Assembly: GCA_963762145.1 (NCBI GenBank)
Contig: CAVXJS010000011.1
Span: 448,001-512,000 of the forward strand
Origin: an uncultured Candidatus Rokubacteria bacterium
GTDB lineage: Bacteria; Methylomirabilota; Methylomirabilia; Rokubacteriales; CSP1-6
Direction: 5' to 3'
Length of the DNA: 64,000 bases
A program made the position numbers and the translations under genes. The notes beneath the pieces were generated by a model. The model made no database searches and was not told the origin of the DNA. It saw only the letters and a list, made by a program, of their open reading frames with translations. Numbering within the stretch: position 1 is the stretch's first letter; each line of letters opens with the position of its first letter. Shown here in pieces: positions 55,105 to 61,953 of this stretch.

Positions 55105-55706
55105 CCGGAGTGATTCAGGCGGGCGGGCGGAGCACCCGCATGGGCGGCCGGCCGAAGGCCCTGCTGGAGCTGGGCGGCCGGCGCATCATCGACCGCGTCG
55201 CGCACGTCATGCGGCAGGTCGCCGACGATCTGCTCATCGTGACCAACACCCCCGAGCTCTACGCCGGGCTCGGCCTGCCGATGGTGCCGGACGCCTTCCC
55301 CGATCACGGCTCGCTGGGCGGCATCTACTCGGGCCTGCAGGCCGCCTCCGGCGATGCCGCCTTCACGGTGGCGTGCGACATGCCGTTCCTGATGCCGGAG
55401 GTGGCGCGCCTCGTCACGGAGCGGGCGGGTCTGGCCGACGTGGTCGCCCCGCGGGTCGGCGATCAGTGGGAGACGCTCCACGCCTGCTACGGGAAGGCCT
55501 GCCTGGCCCCGATCGAGACGCGGCTCCGCGCGGGGCGGCTCAAGATCATCGGCTTCTACGACGACGTGCGCGTGCTCGCGATCTCCGCGGGCGAGGTCGC
55601 CCGCTTCCGGGCCCCCGAGGTCGTGTTCATGAACGTCAACACCCCGGAAGAGCTCGAGGCCGCCCGCGTGCTCCTCCCCGCGCTCGAGCCGGCGGGAGGC
55701 CGCTAG
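55095..55706 (+). CDS. mobA: Molybdenum cofactor guanylyltransferase
   Basis: AGGRSTRMG, GSLGGIYSGL, ACDMPFL and NVNTPEEL. Confidence 0.9.
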   Translation: MRITGVIQAGGRSTRMGGRPKALLELGGRRIIDRVAHVMRQVADDLLIVTNTPELYAGLGLPMVPDAFPDHGSLGGIYSGLQAASGDAAFTVACDMPFLMPEVARLVTERAGLADVVAPRVGDQWETLHACYGKACLAPIETRLRAGRLKIIGFYDDVRVLAISAGEVARFRAPEVVFMNVNTPEELEAARVLLPALEPAGGR

Positions 55707-55716
55707 GAGCCGGGCC

Positions 55717-56541
55717 ATGGACGCGCGCGTCGAGGGACTCGGGCTCGGCTCGATCCAGGAGATCAACGCGCTGCCGCGCGAGGTCGCGGAGGCGCTCTAC
55801 ACGCGCCTGGTGCCGGAGGAGCTGCTCGACCGGTTCGCCATCGACCCGCACACCCTCTGCGACAAGGCGGGCGCGCGTCTGGTGCGGGTGACCGCCCCCG
55901 CGGACCAGCCGTGGGCCCGCGTGGAGGTGCGCTCGAGCCCGGAGGACCGCGATCCCGCGCTGCTGGTGGACGTGGAGATGTCCCCGCTCTCGGTGCCGGA
56001 GCTGGCCTTCGTGCAGATCACCGATCCCGCCGGCATCCGCTACGCGATCGACCGCGATCCGGACGGCCGCGACACGCTCTTCGGCACCACCTGTCGCAAC
56101 GTCGAGGAAGAGCGCCGCGCGATGCGGAGCGGTCTCGCGCCCGGGCAGGTCCGGCGCGGCCTGCGCCTGCTCTCCCGCGTGCTCGACGCCATGGAGGGCT
56201 TCTGCGCCCTCATCGGCAAGGAGATCTACCTCATCGAGCCCCTCTTCTATCACTCCGCGATCCTCTACGAGCGCCGCGGCTGCGGCTACCTGATGGGCCG
56301 CGACGTGATGGAGTCGATCCACGCCGGCTTCTCCGACGGCGGCCCGCTGCTGCGGGCCCTCGACGCATCCACCGAGTTCCGCGGTCCGGAGGCGGCCCGG
56401 ACGGTGCGCGGCCGGAGCTGGGCCATCCACGACGGGGTCGGTGACGGGCTCTGGGCCGGCGGGGCGGTGGGCGGGGTGAAGATGTACAAGGTCGCGGGTC
56501 GCCAGGCCGGGATCAACACCTTCCCGGGCGCGATCTACTGA
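55717..56541 (+). CDS. Conserved hypothetical protein with GNAT-like motifs
   Basis: Clean 274-aa ORF with AGGAG RBS. GLAPGQVRRGLR and EPLFYHSAILYERRG resemble GNAT motifs A and B. Confidence 0.7.
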   Translation: MDARVEGLGLGSIQEINALPREVAEALYTRLVPEELLDRFAIDPHTLCDKAGARLVRVTAPADQPWARVEVRSSPEDRDPALLVDVEMSPLSVPELAFVQITDPAGIRYAIDRDPDGRDTLFGTTCRNVEEERRAMRSGLAPGQVRRGLRLLSRVLDAMEGFCALIGKEIYLIEPLFYHSAILYERRGCGYLMGRDVMESIHAGFSDGGPLLRALDASTEFRGPEAARTVRGRSWAIHDGVGDGLWAGGAVGGVKMYKVAGRQAGINTFPGAIY

Positions 56542-56556
56542 GGCCGACCCCCGGGA

Positions 56557-56562
56557 TATACT
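56557..56562 (+). promoter_or_regulatory. -10 element of a probable leaderless transcript
   Basis: TATACT ends 6 nt before GTG 56569. No Shine-Dalgarno sequence. Confidence 0.6.
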
Positions 56563-56568
56563 GTTGCG

Positions 56569-56697
56569 GTGAAGCGCCCGAAGCCCATTCACCGCAAGAT
56601 CCGCAAGCCGATGCCCGCGAAGCCCCCGAAGGTGGAAATTCCCAAGACGGTGTACCGGCGTCGGCCCAAGCACCGGCGCACCGCGGGGAGCGAGTGA
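56569..56697 (+). CDS. Small basic protein (42 aa) with an ArfA-like YxRxxKH motif; not in the ORF track
   Basis: MKRPKPIHRKIRKPMPAKPPKVEIPKTVYRRRPKHRRTAGSE. All Lys codons are AAG, third positions are GC-rich, and the stop overlaps the thiI ATG (TGATG). Confidence 0.7.
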   Translation: MKRPKPIHRKIRKPMPAKPPKVEIPKTVYRRRPKHRRTAGSE

Positions 56698-57938
56698 TGA
56701 CGGAGGCCGCGCCGGCCGCCATCGTCCACTACCACGAGATCAGCCTCAAGCGGGGCAACCGGCCGCTCTTCCTCCGCCAGCTCCACCAGAACCTGCTGCG
56801 CGCGATCGGCGACCTCGGACCGGTGGAGCTGGTCCAGCTGTCCGGCCGCGTGATGCTCGATCTCTCGCGGCACCCCGCGCCGCGGCTCCTGCCCGAGCGG
56901 CTGGCGCGGGTCGCGGGCGTGGCGAACTTCGCCCTCGCGATCCGGACCGGGGTATCGCGCGAGGCGCTGCGGGCCGCGGTGGAGGAGGCGATCGCGGGCC
57001 GCGTCTTCGGCTCCTTCCGGATCACCGCCCGCCGCGCGTTCAAGACCTTCCCGATGACATCGGTGGAGCTCAACCGCGACCTGGGTGCCCACGTGCTCGC
57101 GCTGCGGCCCGAGGTCCGGGTGAGCCTCGAGCATCCGGACCTGAACGTGCGCGTCGAGGTGCTGCCGGACGAGGCCTTCGTTTACTGCGACCCGCAGCCC
57201 GGCGCGGGCGGGCTGCCGGTGGGCACGGGCGGGACGGTGGCGGCCCTGCTCTCGGGCGGCATCGACTCGCCGGTGGCCGCGTGGCGCCTCATGCGGCGCG
57301 GCTGCCGCGTGGTCTTCGTGCACTTCCACAGCGCGCCGTACCTGCCGGATCTCTCGCGCGGCAAGGCCCGCGAGCTCGTGACGCGGCTGACCCAGTGGCA
57401 GTACCACTCGCGGCTGTTCATCGTGCCCTTCGGCGAGATCCAGCGCGAAGTCGTGCTGTCGGTGCCGCCGCCGTTCCGCGTCGTGGTGTACCGCCGGCTG
57501 ATGGTGCGCATCGCGGAGCGGCTGGCCCGTCACGCGGGCGCGCTCGCGCTCGTCACCGGGGAGAGCCTGGGGCAGGTGGCGTCGCAGACGCTGCACAACC
57601 TCATCCGCATCGACGAGGTGGCCGCGATGCCGATCCTGCGGCCCCTCATCGGCATGGACAAGCTCGAGATCACCGGGCAGGCCCAGGCGCTCGGCACCTA
57701 CGAGATCTCCATCGAGCCGGACGCCGACTGCTGCACCCTCTTCACGCCGCGCCATCCCGCCACCCGGATGGAAGCGGACGCGGTCGCGGCGCTGGAAGCG
57801 CGCCTGGACCTGGAGCGGCTCGTGACCCAGGGCGTGGAGGCCGCCGAGCAGGAGCTCTTCGAGTTCCCCGCCGGGGCCGGCCCGTACCCGCCGCGCGGTG
57901 CGGCCCGCCGGCCCTTGACGGAGCCCGTCTCCGAGTGA
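56697..57938 (+). CDS. thiI: tRNA 4-thiouridine(8) synthase (no rhodanese domain)
   Basis: EISLKRGNR, THUMP domain, PP-loop LSGGIDSPVA, GESLGQVASQT and DCCTLF. Confidence 0.93.
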   Translation: MTEAAPAAIVHYHEISLKRGNRPLFLRQLHQNLLRAIGDLGPVELVQLSGRVMLDLSRHPAPRLLPERLARVAGVANFALAIRTGVSREALRAAVEEAIAGRVFGSFRITARRAFKTFPMTSVELNRDLGAHVLALRPEVRVSLEHPDLNVRVEVLPDEAFVYCDPQPGAGGLPVGTGGTVAALLSGGIDSPVAAWRLMRRGCRVVFVHFHSAPYLPDLSRGKARELVTRLTQWQYHSRLFIVPFGEIQREVVLSVPPPFRVVVYRRLMVRIAERLARHAGALALVTGESLGQVASQTLHNLIRIDEVAAMPILRPLIGMDKLEITGQAQALGTYEISIEPDADCCTLFTPRHPATRMEADAVAALEARLDLERLVTQGVEAAEQELFEFPAGAGPYPPRGAARRPLTEPVSE

Positions 57939-57956
57939 TCCCCGCGTGATCTCGAC

Positions 57957-59344
57957 GTGAACCAGACGCTGACCTTTCTCGGAGGCGCGGGAGGCACGGT
58001 CACCGGGTCCAAGCACCTGCTCGAGAACGGAGCCGGCCGCGTCCTGCTCGACTGCGGCCTCTTCCAGGGCCTGAAGGCGCTGCGCCAGCGCAACTGGGCG
58101 GCGCCGCCGGTGGACCCGGGCACGCTCGGCGCGGTGATCCTGAGCCACGCCCACATCGATCACTCGGGCTACCTGCCGCGGCTCTGCCGCGACGGCTTCA
58201 CGGGGCCGGTCTACTGCACGCCGGGCACGTCCGATCTGCTTGAAGGTCATGCTGCCCGACGCGGCGCACCTCCAGGAGGAGGAAGCGGAGTTCGCCAACC
58301 GCCATCGCACCAGCAAGCACGACCCCGCGCTGCCGCTGTACACGATCGCGGACGCCGAGCGCGCGCTCGCCCAGGTGAAGCGGCGTGGACTTCGGCCGCC
58401 GGTTCACCGCCACGCGCGGAGTCGAGGCGCGCTTCACCCCGTCCGGGCACATCCTGGGCGCGGGTCTCGTCGACGTGCGAGACCGGCGGCCGCCGGCTCG
58501 TCTTCTCCGGCGATCTCGGCCGCTACGACGTGCCGATCATGGTGGATCCCGAGCCGGTCGCCGAGGCCGACGTGCTGCTGGTGGAGTCCACCTACGGCAA
58601 CCGCGTGCATCCGCCCGACGATCCGGGCGACCGGCTCGACCGCGGCGGTGCGCCGCGCCGCCGACCAGAAGGGCTGGCTGCTGATCCCGGCGTTCGCGGT
58701 CGGGCGCTCCCAGGAGATCCTCTACGACCTGCGCCGGCTCGAGGCGGGCGGCCGGATCCCGAGCCTGCCCGATCTACCTGGACAGCCCGATGGCGATCCA
58801 GGCGACGGTGATCTACGCGGCGCATCCCGAGGAGCACGATGCGGCGCTGCGGCAGGCCGGCAGCGGCGGCGCGCGGCCCTTCGCCCCGCGCCGCTTCCAT
58901 CTCTCGCAGACGGTGGACGAGTCGAAGCGCCTCAACGAGACCGCGGGCCCCGGCATCATCGTGGCGGGCAGCGGCATGGCGACCGGCGGCCGCATCCTCC
59001 ACCACCTCAAGCGTCTGCTGCCGGATCCGAAGACCACGGTGCTCTTCGTCGGCTACCAGGCGGCGGGCACGCGGGGCCGGCTGCTCAGGGACGGCGCGGC
59101 CGAGATCCGGATGCTCGGCACGGTGGTCCCGGTCCGCGCCGCGATCATGGTGAGCGACGCCTACTCCGCCCACGCCGATCGCGAGGAGATCCTGCGCTGG
59201 CTCGGCGGGTTCGAGCGCCCCCCCGGCATGACCTATGTCGTGCACGGCGAGGCGGGCGCGGCGGAGGCGCTGCGGGACGCGATCGTGCGCCGTCTCGGCT
59301 GGAACACGGCCGTCGCCCGGGATGGCCAGCGCGTGGCGCTCTGA
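57957..59344 (+). CDS. Metallo-beta-lactamase / beta-CASP ribonuclease (frameshifted)
   Basis: [36 protein letters not shown] and VHGE. Confidence 0.9.
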
Positions 59345-60724
59345 GCGAGCACCGGCCGTCCTGGGCGTACCGCGCGGTCCGGGCGCTGGCCCGGCTCCTG
59401 GCCGCCATCTTCTATCACCGGGTGGACGTGATCGGCGCCGAGCGCATCCCGCGCTCGGGTCCGCTCATCGTGGCCGCCAACCACCACAACGCCCTCGTGG
59501 ACGGCGTGCTGCTGCTGGCCATGGTGCCCCGTCGCCTGGTGTCGGTGGCCAAGGCGCCGCTCTTCTCCAATCCGCTGATCGGGCCGTTCCTCCGGCTGAT
59601 CGGCGCGCTGCCGGTTCATCGCCGGCAGGACGGCGGCAGGCGACCCGGGGCGGAACGACCGGCTCTTCGCGGCCTCCACCGCCACGCTCGGTCGCGGCGA
59701 CGCGATCCTGATCTTTCCCGAGGGCGTGAGCCAGCCCGAGCCGACACTGATGCCGCTGCGCACCGGCGCGGCCCGCATGCTGCTGGCTGCCGAGGCGGAT
59801 GCGGTCGGGCCGGTGACGCTCCTGCCGGTGGGGCTCATGTTCCACGAGCCGGGCACGTTCCGCGCGGGCTGGGCCCTGATCGCGGTGGGCGAGCCGGTGG
59901 AGACCGCGGACCTCGTGGCGCTCGCGCGGACCGAGCCCGAGGAAGCGGCGCGCCGGCTCACCGCCCGCCTCGGCGAGGCGCTGCGCGGTCTCCTCGCGGA
60001 GGTGGACGATCGCGAGACGCTCCGCCTGGTCGAGCACGCGGAGCGGCTCTGGCGCCAGGAGCGGGGCGGGGGCGCGCCGCGCGACGCGGCCGCGAGCGCC
60101 GACTGGCGCCGCCGCGCCACGCGCGCCTATCGCTATCTCATCCAGCGCGACCCGGCCGGGCTCGAGATCCTCCGGGGGCTGGTGGAGCGCTACGTCAAGG
60201 ACGTGGAGGCCGCCTCGCTCGGCACCGCGGTCGGATTGAGGGCGCCCGGCGCGCGGGTGGTGCTGCCCTATGCGATGCGCCAGTTCGCGATCCTGCTGGG
60301 CGGCCTGCCGCTCGCGCTCTGGGGCCTGGCCACCCACGCGGTGCCGTACTGGCTCACGTGGGCGGCCGCGAAGCTGGTCCGGCCCGAGCCGGACGTGGAG
60401 GCCACCTACAAGCTCGCGGCGGGCGTCGTCATCTTTCCGCTCGCGTGGATCGTGGAAGGGTGGCTGCTCTGGCGCTGGGTCGGGGGCTGGCTGCTCGTGC
60501 TCTTCGCGGTCCTGGTCATCCCTGGCGGCTTCTTCGCGCTCGCGTGGGGCGAGCGGCTGCGCCGCCTCTATCGCGAGGGCCGCGCGCTGCTCCGCCTCCT
60601 GGTGGACGGGGATCTCGGGCGCCACCTGGGCGAGCGCCGGCGGGCCATCCTGGACGAGATGGACCGGGCGGTGGCGCGCGTGCCCGAGTCGGTGCTGGCC
60701 GGCCGCGAGGAGCCGCGCGGATGA
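59341..60724 (+). CDS. PlsC-like acyltransferase with membrane C-terminus (frameshift near 59640; start possibly CTG)
   Basis: NHHNALVD (HxxxxD), AKAPLF, IFPEG and C-terminal TM helices. Confidence 0.85.
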
Positions 60725-61953
60725 ACGTGCGCGCGATCGTGGCCTGGACGCTCTACGACTTCGCGAACTCCGCGTTCGCGGCGGTGATCTTCGCCACGAT
60801 CTATGCCGCGTACTACGCCATCGGGGTGGTCGGCAACGAGGGCGGGGCGGGAGATCTCTGGTGGGGACGCGTGGTCTCCGTCTCCATGGGGCTGGTGGCG
60901 CTGACGTCGCCCTTCCTGGGGGGCGTGGCCGATCGCGCGGGCATCCGTCGGCCGCTCTTCATCGGCTTCACGACCGCCGGGGTGATCGCCACCGCGCTCA
61001 TGACCACGGTGGAGCCCGGCATGGTGGTCTGGGGCTTCGTGCTCGGCGTGATCGGCAACTTCGCCTACGAGAGCGCGCTCGTCTACTACAACGCCTATCT
61101 CCCCGATCTGGCCCCGCCCAGCCATCAGGGCCGCGTGTCGGGGTGGGGCTTCGCGGTGGGCTACGCGGGCTCGATCGCGGCCCTGCTGGCCGCGCTGCCC
61201 TTCGTGAGCGCCCGCAACTACCAGGGCGCGTTCCTCGCCACCGCGGCGCTCTACGCGATCTTCTCGCTCCCGGCCTTCTTCATGCTCCCGGCCGCGCCGA
61301 GCGGGCGGGTGCCGGTGCTCCGGGCCGCCCGCGAGGGCGCCGCGCAGGTGGTGGCCACCGCGCGCCGGATCCTGGCCCTGCCCGACCTACGGCGCTTCCT
61401 GGGCGCCTACTTCATCTACGAGGACGGGGTGAACACCGTCATCGCCTTTTCCGGCATTTTCGCGGCCCAGACGCTCGGCTTCCCGATGGAGCGGCTGATC
61501 GCGCTCTACATCGTGGTGCAGATCTCGGCCCTCATCGGCGCGCTGGCCTGGGCGCGGCCGACCGACATCATGGGCCCGCGCCGGGTGGTGATGATCACCC
61601 TCTGCCAGTGGTCGGCCGTCGTGGTCGCCGCCTACTTCGTCGAGACCCAGACCCAGTTCTGGGTGCTGGCGGTGGTGGCGGGCACCGGGCTCGGGGCGGT
61701 GCAGGCGGCCAGCCGCGCGTTCCTGGCCCGCCTGGCGCCCCCCGGCATGCAGGCCGAGCTGTTCGGCTTCTACTCGCTCTGCGGCAAGAGCGCCGCGGTC
61801 ATGGGCCCGCTCGTCTTCGGCGGCATCTCCCACGCGGCGGGCGGCAACCAGCGGGCCGGCATCCTCGCCATCGGGTCCTTCTTCGTGGTCGGGCTGGCGC
61901 TCCTGTCACGGGTGAAGGCAGGCGGGAAAGCCCCACCGGTAGCGTCGTCTTGA
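60721..61953 (+). CDS. MFS transporter (UMF1/Atg22-like)
   Basis: [39 protein letters not shown] and [11 protein letters not shown]. Confidence 0.88.

Follow-up and report, generated by a model that had tools for sequence, protein, structure and literature searches.

What, if anything, is encoded by the 42-codon open reading frame (ORF) that stands directly ahead of thiI, the gene of a tRNA 4-thiouridine synthase, in an uncultured Candidatus Rokubacteria bacterium? The frame lies on the forward strand of a stretch of 64,000 nucleotides (nt) from contig CAVXJS010000011.1 (positions 448,001 to 512,000), called the window hereafter, whose numbering is used throughout. It reads VKRPKPIHRKIRKPMPAKPPKVEIPKTVYRRRPKHRRTAGSE followed by a stop, from a GTG start, and its product contains 8 Lys and 8 Arg (16 of 42 residues) and 8 Pro. 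Our results show that the frame is a real gene whose protein is under purifying selection, and that this protein belongs to a previously unnamed family of small, basic, Pro- and Lys/Arg-rich proteins of Methylomirabilota, Spirochaetota and many uncultured bacteria. The organization of the spirochaete genes suggests that the family may rescue stalled ribosomes, a reading to which we give an even chance. In the interval 56541-56700, TATACT stands between the stop of the upstream gene (56539-56541) and the GTG at 56569, from which the spacer gttgcg separates it, and the TGA (56695-56697) overlaps an in-frame GTG (56694) and the ATG (56697) of thiI. The first-pass annotation of this DNA had described the locus in the same terms (TATACT 6 nt before the GTG, 42 codons, 16 Lys/Arg, 8 Pro and a TGA over the thiI start), and reading and translating the sequence confirmed them.

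By itself, an open frame so short is no evidence of a gene in this G+C-rich DNA: 9 kb contain 69 ORFs of at least 30 amino acids (aa), long antisense shadows among them. The abundance of spurious frames, and the antisense shadows over the same bases, would favour a chance open frame or a conserved non-coding element, explanations whose probability we consider negligible in view of the related genomes. When 41 genomes from the same order were searched in six frames, the peptide was recovered in 33 at E ≤ 1.5e-5, with internal stops in none; the other eight gave chance-level matches or none, and six of these eight are below 80% complete. The frame is therefore more than a product of chance, being conserved across related genomes, which the names attached to the homologues place in Methylomirabilota/Rokubacteria. 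A core of 24 residues, RKPMPxKPPKVEVPxTVYRRRPKH, is near-invariant across the 30 loci that were fetched, despite their differing DNA. In the 72 nt that encode it, the variable columns number 9, 4 and 21 of 24 at codon positions 1, 2 and 3, respectively, and Arg is retained through exchanges between CGN and AGR codons. The 30 distinct core DNAs encode 13 distinct peptides in the frame of the ORF versus 27-30 in each of the five other frames, and the antisense frames are closed in homologues from genomes of 36% G+C; an antisense gene was rejected on these two grounds. Over the whole ORF, the Nei-Gojobori ratio of nonsynonymous to synonymous substitution rates (dN/dS) was 0.0-0.30 in the 21 pairs formed by seven 42-codon orthologues, and 0.10-0.35 for thiI in the same pairs. 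The codon-position pattern, the dN/dS values and the frame-specific conservation of the peptide thus refute a chance origin.

Among 26 aligned Methylomirabilota sequences, 16 columns are invariant (R12, K13, P14, M15, P16, K18, P19, P20, K21, P25, T27, Y29, R30, R31, K34 and H35), the final K34-H35 pair being present in 26 of 26. The tails that follow it in relatives have about 7-10 residues, mostly with acidic residues at the end. In several public gene calls the start is set at the internal Met15, which omits the N-terminus; however, R12-K13-P14 are kept through synonymous changes, and translation must therefore start upstream of Met15. Among the 120 public homologues listed, of 205, all are named "hypothetical protein" and have no Pfam domains. 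A 42-codon frame that gene callers often clip or skip is under selection as strong as that on its enzyme neighbour.

The window protein has no Pfam match at E ≤ 1 and no NCBIfam match, and a search of the PDB sequences with the family profile gave no match at E ≤ 10. Its relatives were found in an exhaustive HMMER search of 1.84 billion representative sequences with a 26-sequence profile, which returned 41 proteins at E ≤ 1e-3. Those beyond the close relatives are proteins of 38-70 aa from A+T-rich organisms, sharing the motif RxPxPxKPPK(V/I)ExPKxxYxR(K/R)xKH. When one genome per species was scanned, 49 loci were confirmed, of which 16 lie on contigs of 34-47% G+C from metagenome-assembled genomes (MAGs) labelled Spirochaetota/Leptospirales, with about 50-68% identity to the window protein over 25-43 residues. 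In metagenomes, the pattern R[IL]P[LV]PxKPPK led to 61 further confirmed loci on contigs of 25-66% G+C. The genes around the spirochaete loci and ten metagenome loci are mutually unrelated (FlgI, a rod-binding protein, a phosphoesterase, an MscS-type channel, kinases, histidine kinases, superoxide dismutase, dihydropteroate synthase and glycosyltransferases), and these neighbourhoods gave no functional hint. The gene is accessory and stand-alone. No published description of the family was found, although a sequence motif is not searchable in the literature and this is no proof that the family is unpublished.

The metagenome contigs L114-L174 also contain a large sister group of proteins of 40-55 aa, RIP(L/V)PQKPPKVEKxKKxYxRKKEK, in which Glu-Lys takes the place of Lys-His. 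These genes have ordinary stops and Lys-rich tails and lie on contigs of 25-40% G+C, two of them next to genes for SxtJ-like and family-2 glycosyltransferases.

The feature that points to a function is an intrinsic terminator inside the ORF, directly after the conserved core, in all 16 spirochaete loci. The G+C-rich hairpin, with a stem of 10-14 bp and no more than one mismatch, begins between -5 and +4 nt after the Lys-His codons, and the T-run sets in 10-12.7 codons after them. No in-frame stop occurs until 18-38 codons after Lys-His, 6-26 codons beyond the onset of the T-run, at unconserved positions preceded by unrelated residues; a transcript that ends in the T-run therefore carries no stop codon. 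At least six stem sequences occur among the clades (GGGTCTGGA, GGGGACTGA, GGGGTATGA, GGAGGAGGT, GGGAGGAA and GGAGGGTT), with pairing always kept, and the residues that they encode vary with the stem (KGLENEKFRPFFY, KGYDDKDSYPFF, RRSNEDPSFFF and GRKFDDDSSLFIF). Since the stems pair throughout while the encoded residues change, selection acts on the RNA hairpin rather than on the peptide. Along the same strand, these loci total 114,654 nt and contain 39 sites of such strength, 16 of which are those inside the ORF. Many spirochaete copies are flanked by two terminators and form a unit of their own. Outside this large clade, a terminator likewise lies inside the ORF in one further metagenome contig (L126, 59% G+C), whose close relatives L117-L119 instead have a terminator placed after a stop. 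Such a non-stop mRNA design had been known only from arfA and brfA.

In brfA, as in arfA, a rho-independent terminator within the coding region is described to give a non-stop mRNA, whose product is tagged by transfer-messenger RNA (tmRNA) and degraded unless trans-translation fails (PMC6881298). According to the same account, BrfA and ArfA are otherwise unrelated but have in common a Lys-His pair that contacts U534 of 16S rRNA in the mRNA channel, and each augments the beta-sheet of release factor RF2 with a short strand (PMC6881298). Both factors are known for low compatibility between species (PMC8012679). The spirochaete genes resemble brfA in the terminator and in a basic C-terminal segment whose Lys-His stands about 12 residues ahead of the mRNA end. 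BrfA ends about 12 residues after K49-H50 (PMC6881298), and ArfA is reported to be active without the last 17-18 of its 72 residues (PMC8012679), which, with the ArfA sequence, puts the end of active ArfA about 9-10 residues after K44-H45. The corresponding distance from Lys-His to the end of the mRNA is 10-13 codons or slightly more in the spirochaete genes; in the window protein, 7 residues follow and then a stop.

The likeness to ArfA (Pfam PF03889, YhdL) lies in a small basic protein with Y-x-R-K-x-K-H and a short tail, V-E a few residues upstream, and a stand-alone accessory gene; as a sequence feature, the basic C-terminal segment with its Lys-His pair is present in the window protein, and the mRNA that ends before a stop, about 10-13 codons after Lys-His, is a trait of the spirochaete homologues. 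The segment of Escherichia coli ArfA given in the first-pass annotation was correct, ArfA reading RVEKNKKGKGSYMRKGKH. As for the GKGS motif, which the annotation noted as lacking, the GKG segment is missing from the family, and the spacing is for this reason three residues shorter than in ArfA. In addition, the conserved 25-residue N-terminus of ArfA (…EALLHDPLFRQR) has no counterpart, the Pro-rich KPxPxKPPK standing there instead, and ArfA is described as confined to beta- and gamma-proteobacteria (PMC8012679), unlike the present family of Methylomirabilota and Spirochaetota. BrfA, which is limited to Bacillus, has two N-terminal alpha-helices that bind H69/H71 (PMC6881298), a conserved Arg in them stacking on U1915, whereas the family is Pro-rich and much shorter there; with 6 Pro among the 20 residues of the N-terminal half of the window protein, such helices are unlikely. 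No sequence similarity to BrfA was detected by NCBIfam or Pfam matches. The window copy differs from both factors in its normal stop and in having no terminator inside the ORF.

ArfT of Francisella tularensis, thought to recruit release factors, has about 40 aa (PMC8012679, PMC6514570) and thus the size of the present proteins. However, the published account of ArfT is of a charged alpha-helical unit, often present in 1-8 repeats and related to stress proteins (PMC6514570). A Pro-rich, non-repetitive peptide with no Pfam match at E ≤ 1 does not fit this picture; judged by that description alone, membership appears unlikely and was rejected. The sole library family touched is DUF7230 (PF23876), which 5 of 28 distant members match weakly over KVExPKxxYxRKxKH (best E 0.0023, 18.4 bits), every match being under the gathering cut-off of 27 bits. 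There was no DUF7230 match for the window protein, its genome, or nine of ten metagenome members, and a literature search found the name in no paper. The family is therefore not a member of ArfA or BrfA by the tests run, and by its description probably not of ArfT, and it appears to have features common to those factors.

Because its spirochaete relatives are built like arfA and brfA, the window gene may be a member of a new family of small ribosome-rescue factors, which would occupy the vacant mRNA channel and act together with a release factor; we consider this about as likely as not. When a ribosome has stalled at the 3' end of an mRNA that has no stop, the extended basic segment ending in Lys-His would enter its mRNA entry channel, which it could fit only if the channel is empty, and the KVEVPKTVY stretch ahead of the segment might assist a class-I release factor in hydrolysing the peptidyl-tRNA in the absence of a stop codon. 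Among the spirochaete members, where the terminator precedes any stop, tmRNA would tag the product for destruction as long as trans-translation is not overloaded; its level would then be inverse to the capacity of trans-translation, and we propose that it is a self-adjusting back-up. In the lineage of the window, a normal stop, a probably leaderless mRNA from TATACT and a translational link to thiI would give constitutive production. A rescue or ribosome-binding microprotein was one of the functions first suggested for the window peptide, and it gains support from the 16 spirochaete terminators and the invariant Lys-His.

The broader picture, to which we lean slightly less than halfway, is of a scattered, release-factor-dependent rescue family beside ArfA, BrfA and ArfT, which may share the ancestry of the ArfA tail (Y-x-R-K-x-K-H) and would exist in two modes: a tmRNA-gated, non-stop form in Spirochaetota, mostly without known back-up factors, and a constitutive, leaderless, stop-bearing form in Methylomirabilota. 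If this is true, the feedback loop through a non-stop mRNA arose, or was kept, in at least three unrelated bacterial lineages. Trans-translation is near-universal, and the known back-up rescue factors are patchy. Further small proteins that recruit release factors probably exist and are not findable by sequence similarity, as stated in PMC8012679; the present family is a concrete candidate with a checkable signature, the terminator inside the ORF, and with natural variants that have it and that do not. Its conserved core of 24 residues is small enough for synthesis and direct testing on non-stop ribosome complexes.

The repertoire of the host genomes is consistent with a back-up role in the spirochaetes. 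Five gene-carrying spirochaete genomes encode SmpB (5/5), with neither ArfB nor ArfA above cut-off in any of them (0/5 each), and a survey of 108 Spirochaetota reports arfB in 16, arfA in none and rqcH in 15 (PMC11633108). The genome of the window encodes RF1 and RF2.

Several observations weigh against ribosome rescue as the function of the window gene. Its genome already has tmRNA, SmpB and ArfB, and across 201 Methylomirabilota genomes, which are related and so not independent samples, the peptide and ArfB are neither complementary nor linked (both in 27, with 28.4 expected; peptide only in 30, ArfB only in 73 and neither in 71, the ArfB tally including the unpublished genome G132). The window copy ends at a true TGA, has no terminator and shows no unusual fold (z -0.73), and the regulatory argument therefore reaches it only via homology. 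Most of the wider family has ordinary stops, the terminator inside the ORF being found in only 1 of the 61 metagenome loci, and Lys-His is replaced by Lys-Asp in 4 of the 16 spirochaete loci and by other pairs, e.g., Glu-Lys, in 41 of the 61; because of these two features, the wider set may hold more than one function. Also absent from the family are the N-terminal parts through which ArfA and BrfA contact uS12, H69 and RF2. The resemblance to ArfA, which the first-pass annotation had called an ArfA-like motif, stands as a short motif and goes no further: in all three comparisons, hhalign places Y-x-R-(K/R)-x-K-H of the family on SYMRKGKH of ArfA, and K34-H35 on K44-H45, but only 16-21 C-terminal columns align and the similarity is statistically unsupported (probability 0.8%, 5% and 5%; P 0.072, 0.0078 and 0.0078). 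Likewise, the suggested search with the ArfA profile was negative, the Pfam model matching neither the window protein at E ≤ 1 nor 28 family members at E ≤ 10, and a six-frame search of the window's genome at E ≤ 10 did not return the locus, while the E. coli ArfA control scored above cut-off. Finally, the tight linkage to thiI within the phylum has no explanation if the protein rescues ribosomes.

This linkage is pronounced. As the annotation's proposed synteny check revealed, thiI lies directly downstream in 28 of 30 related loci (of the other two, one is cut and one has no thiI), and the same holds for 31 of the 33 G+C-rich loci in the genome collection; the gap to thiI in relatives is short, an estimated -15 to +78 nt. 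The linkage would speak for a real microprotein that binds ribosomes or RNA in another job, as an accessory ribosomal protein, a factor of hibernation or mRNA-channel occupancy, or an RNA chaperone, and, in the window's phylum, possibly as a tRNA-binding helper of ThiI, a rival that we consider unlikely although far from negligible. The extremely basic, Pro-rich composition, the strong purifying selection, and the ordinary stops of most family members, as in ordinary small proteins, agree with it, as do two cases in which the microprotein runs in frame into thiI: locus L016 (genome G008, 1474-2877), where its frame continues without a stop, and the public call P0134, which is alike. However, these may be sequencing indels, and the public call P0125 fuses the peptide to the 274-aa upstream gene instead; all three are either true fusions or indel errors. 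Furthermore, thiI is within the flanks of none of the 16 spirochaete loci, the neighbours outside the phylum are unrelated, and a different job gives no reason for the conserved terminator inside the ORF. The distribution within the phylum is patchy as well: a profile search found the gene in 57 of 201 genomes (31 of 104 of good quality), a tally that includes the unpublished genome G084 with a weak match (E 1.6e-4), and it is nearly all-or-none by genus (e.g., 12/13, 7/7 and 7/7 versus 0/10, 0/10 and 0/11), with three families lacking it (0/18, 0/15 and 0/15). A core ribosomal protein would not be so limited, and we rejected this identity.

The short distance to thiI, and in the window the overlap of the stop with the thiI start, also suit an upstream regulatory ORF, in which thiI expression would be set by ribosome stalling or coupling at a Pro/Lys-rich leader, the peptide itself having no function. 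Runs of Pro and Lys can slow translation, and a stalling leader had been the alternative offered in the first-pass annotation; it fares badly, and we consider it very improbable. Conservation of the amino-acid sequence extends to phyla in which the gene is not followed by thiI, the dN/dS of the ORF is as low as that of thiI, and the invariant columns include the non-Pro/Lys residues M15, T27, Y29 and H35. Moreover, five related genomes have thiI without the peptide gene. One of their loci (L113) begins inside thiI; the four with a readable upstream region (L109-L112) hold no remnant of the peptide gene, the 274-aa gene standing directly ahead of thiI in L109 (gap of about 10 nt) and another gene in L110-L112. 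Therefore, thiI does not need the microprotein ORF, which also counts against the rival of another ribosome- or RNA-binding job.

Regarding transcription, TATACT stands 6-7 nt before the GTG or ATG start in all 17 listed loci of the window's family, with varying spacer bases. With a -10 box so placed, transcription would begin at or next to the start codon, and the leaderless mRNA proposed earlier is therefore plausible in the window's lineage. Eleven listed loci of other families have no TATACT there; the upstream stop is 8-25 nt away, with some GGAG-like bases. A scan of 55600-58100 for consensus promoters and terminators found none, including no sigma-70 site, which says little here because the phylum's own promoters are unknown. 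Among RNA contigs from relatives (90-99% likeness), none crosses the intergenic region with 31 letters to spare at each end.

The features of the locus are collected in Table 1.

Table 1. Positions of the microprotein gene, its parts and its neighbours in the window.
Feature	Position	Strand	Basis
TATACT, -10-like hexamer; candidate promoter of a leaderless transcript	56557..56562	+	Sequence reading and conservation in the window's family
Gene of the 42-aa basic microprotein, GTG start, TGA stop	56569..56697	+	Conserved in 33/41 related genomes; coding-type selection
Conserved core R12-H35, RKPMPAKPPKVEIPKTVYRRRPKH, ending in Lys-His	56602..56673	+	Invariant columns; motif also in distant homologues
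Variable 7-residue tail RRTAGSE ahead of the stop	56674..56694	+	Alignment of relatives
thiI, tRNA 4-thiouridine synthase without rhodanese domain; start overlaps the microprotein stop	56694..57938	+	TIGR00342 E 3.8e-102, above cut-off; Pfam ThiI, THUMP, ThiI_fer
Conserved upstream neighbour, 274 aa, uncharacterised family	55717..56541	+	Upstream in 24/30 loci
Beta-CASP/MBL ribonuclease-type gene, split across three reading frames	57957..59344	+	Library matches; intact relatives

For the 274-aa upstream protein, searches of Pfam, NCBIfam and the PDB sequences gave no match. The first-pass annotation had placed the peptide at the head of an RNA-metabolism operon of thiI and the beta-CASP ribonuclease gene, an arrangement that holds within Methylomirabilota and is not found outside the phylum; in the window, moreover, the ribonuclease gene is frameshifted. 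Its pieces lie at 57957-58637, 58639-58770 and 58763-59341, with a garbled stretch within the first, and it is intact at 460 aa in three relatives. The window copy is either a pseudogene or the product of assembly indels. Overlapping this region, an open frame of 1237 aa (58240-61953, forward strand) contains acyltransferase and MFS/Atg22-like domains and is probably several genes plus a shadow frame.

The same three-gene block is carried by contigs L046, L048, L051, L055, L060, L065 and L070, at a G+C content of 72-75% and with proteins 69-94% identical to those of the window. These seven belong to the 33 G+C-rich loci, and their taxon labels are Limnocylindria, Verrucomicrobiia, Acidoferrum, Nitrosotalea, Deferrimicrobiaceae and Nitrosocosmicus. 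The labels are doubtful given the 69-94% identity of the neighbouring genes to those of the window, which suggests that these are Methylomirabilota contigs binned into other MAGs.

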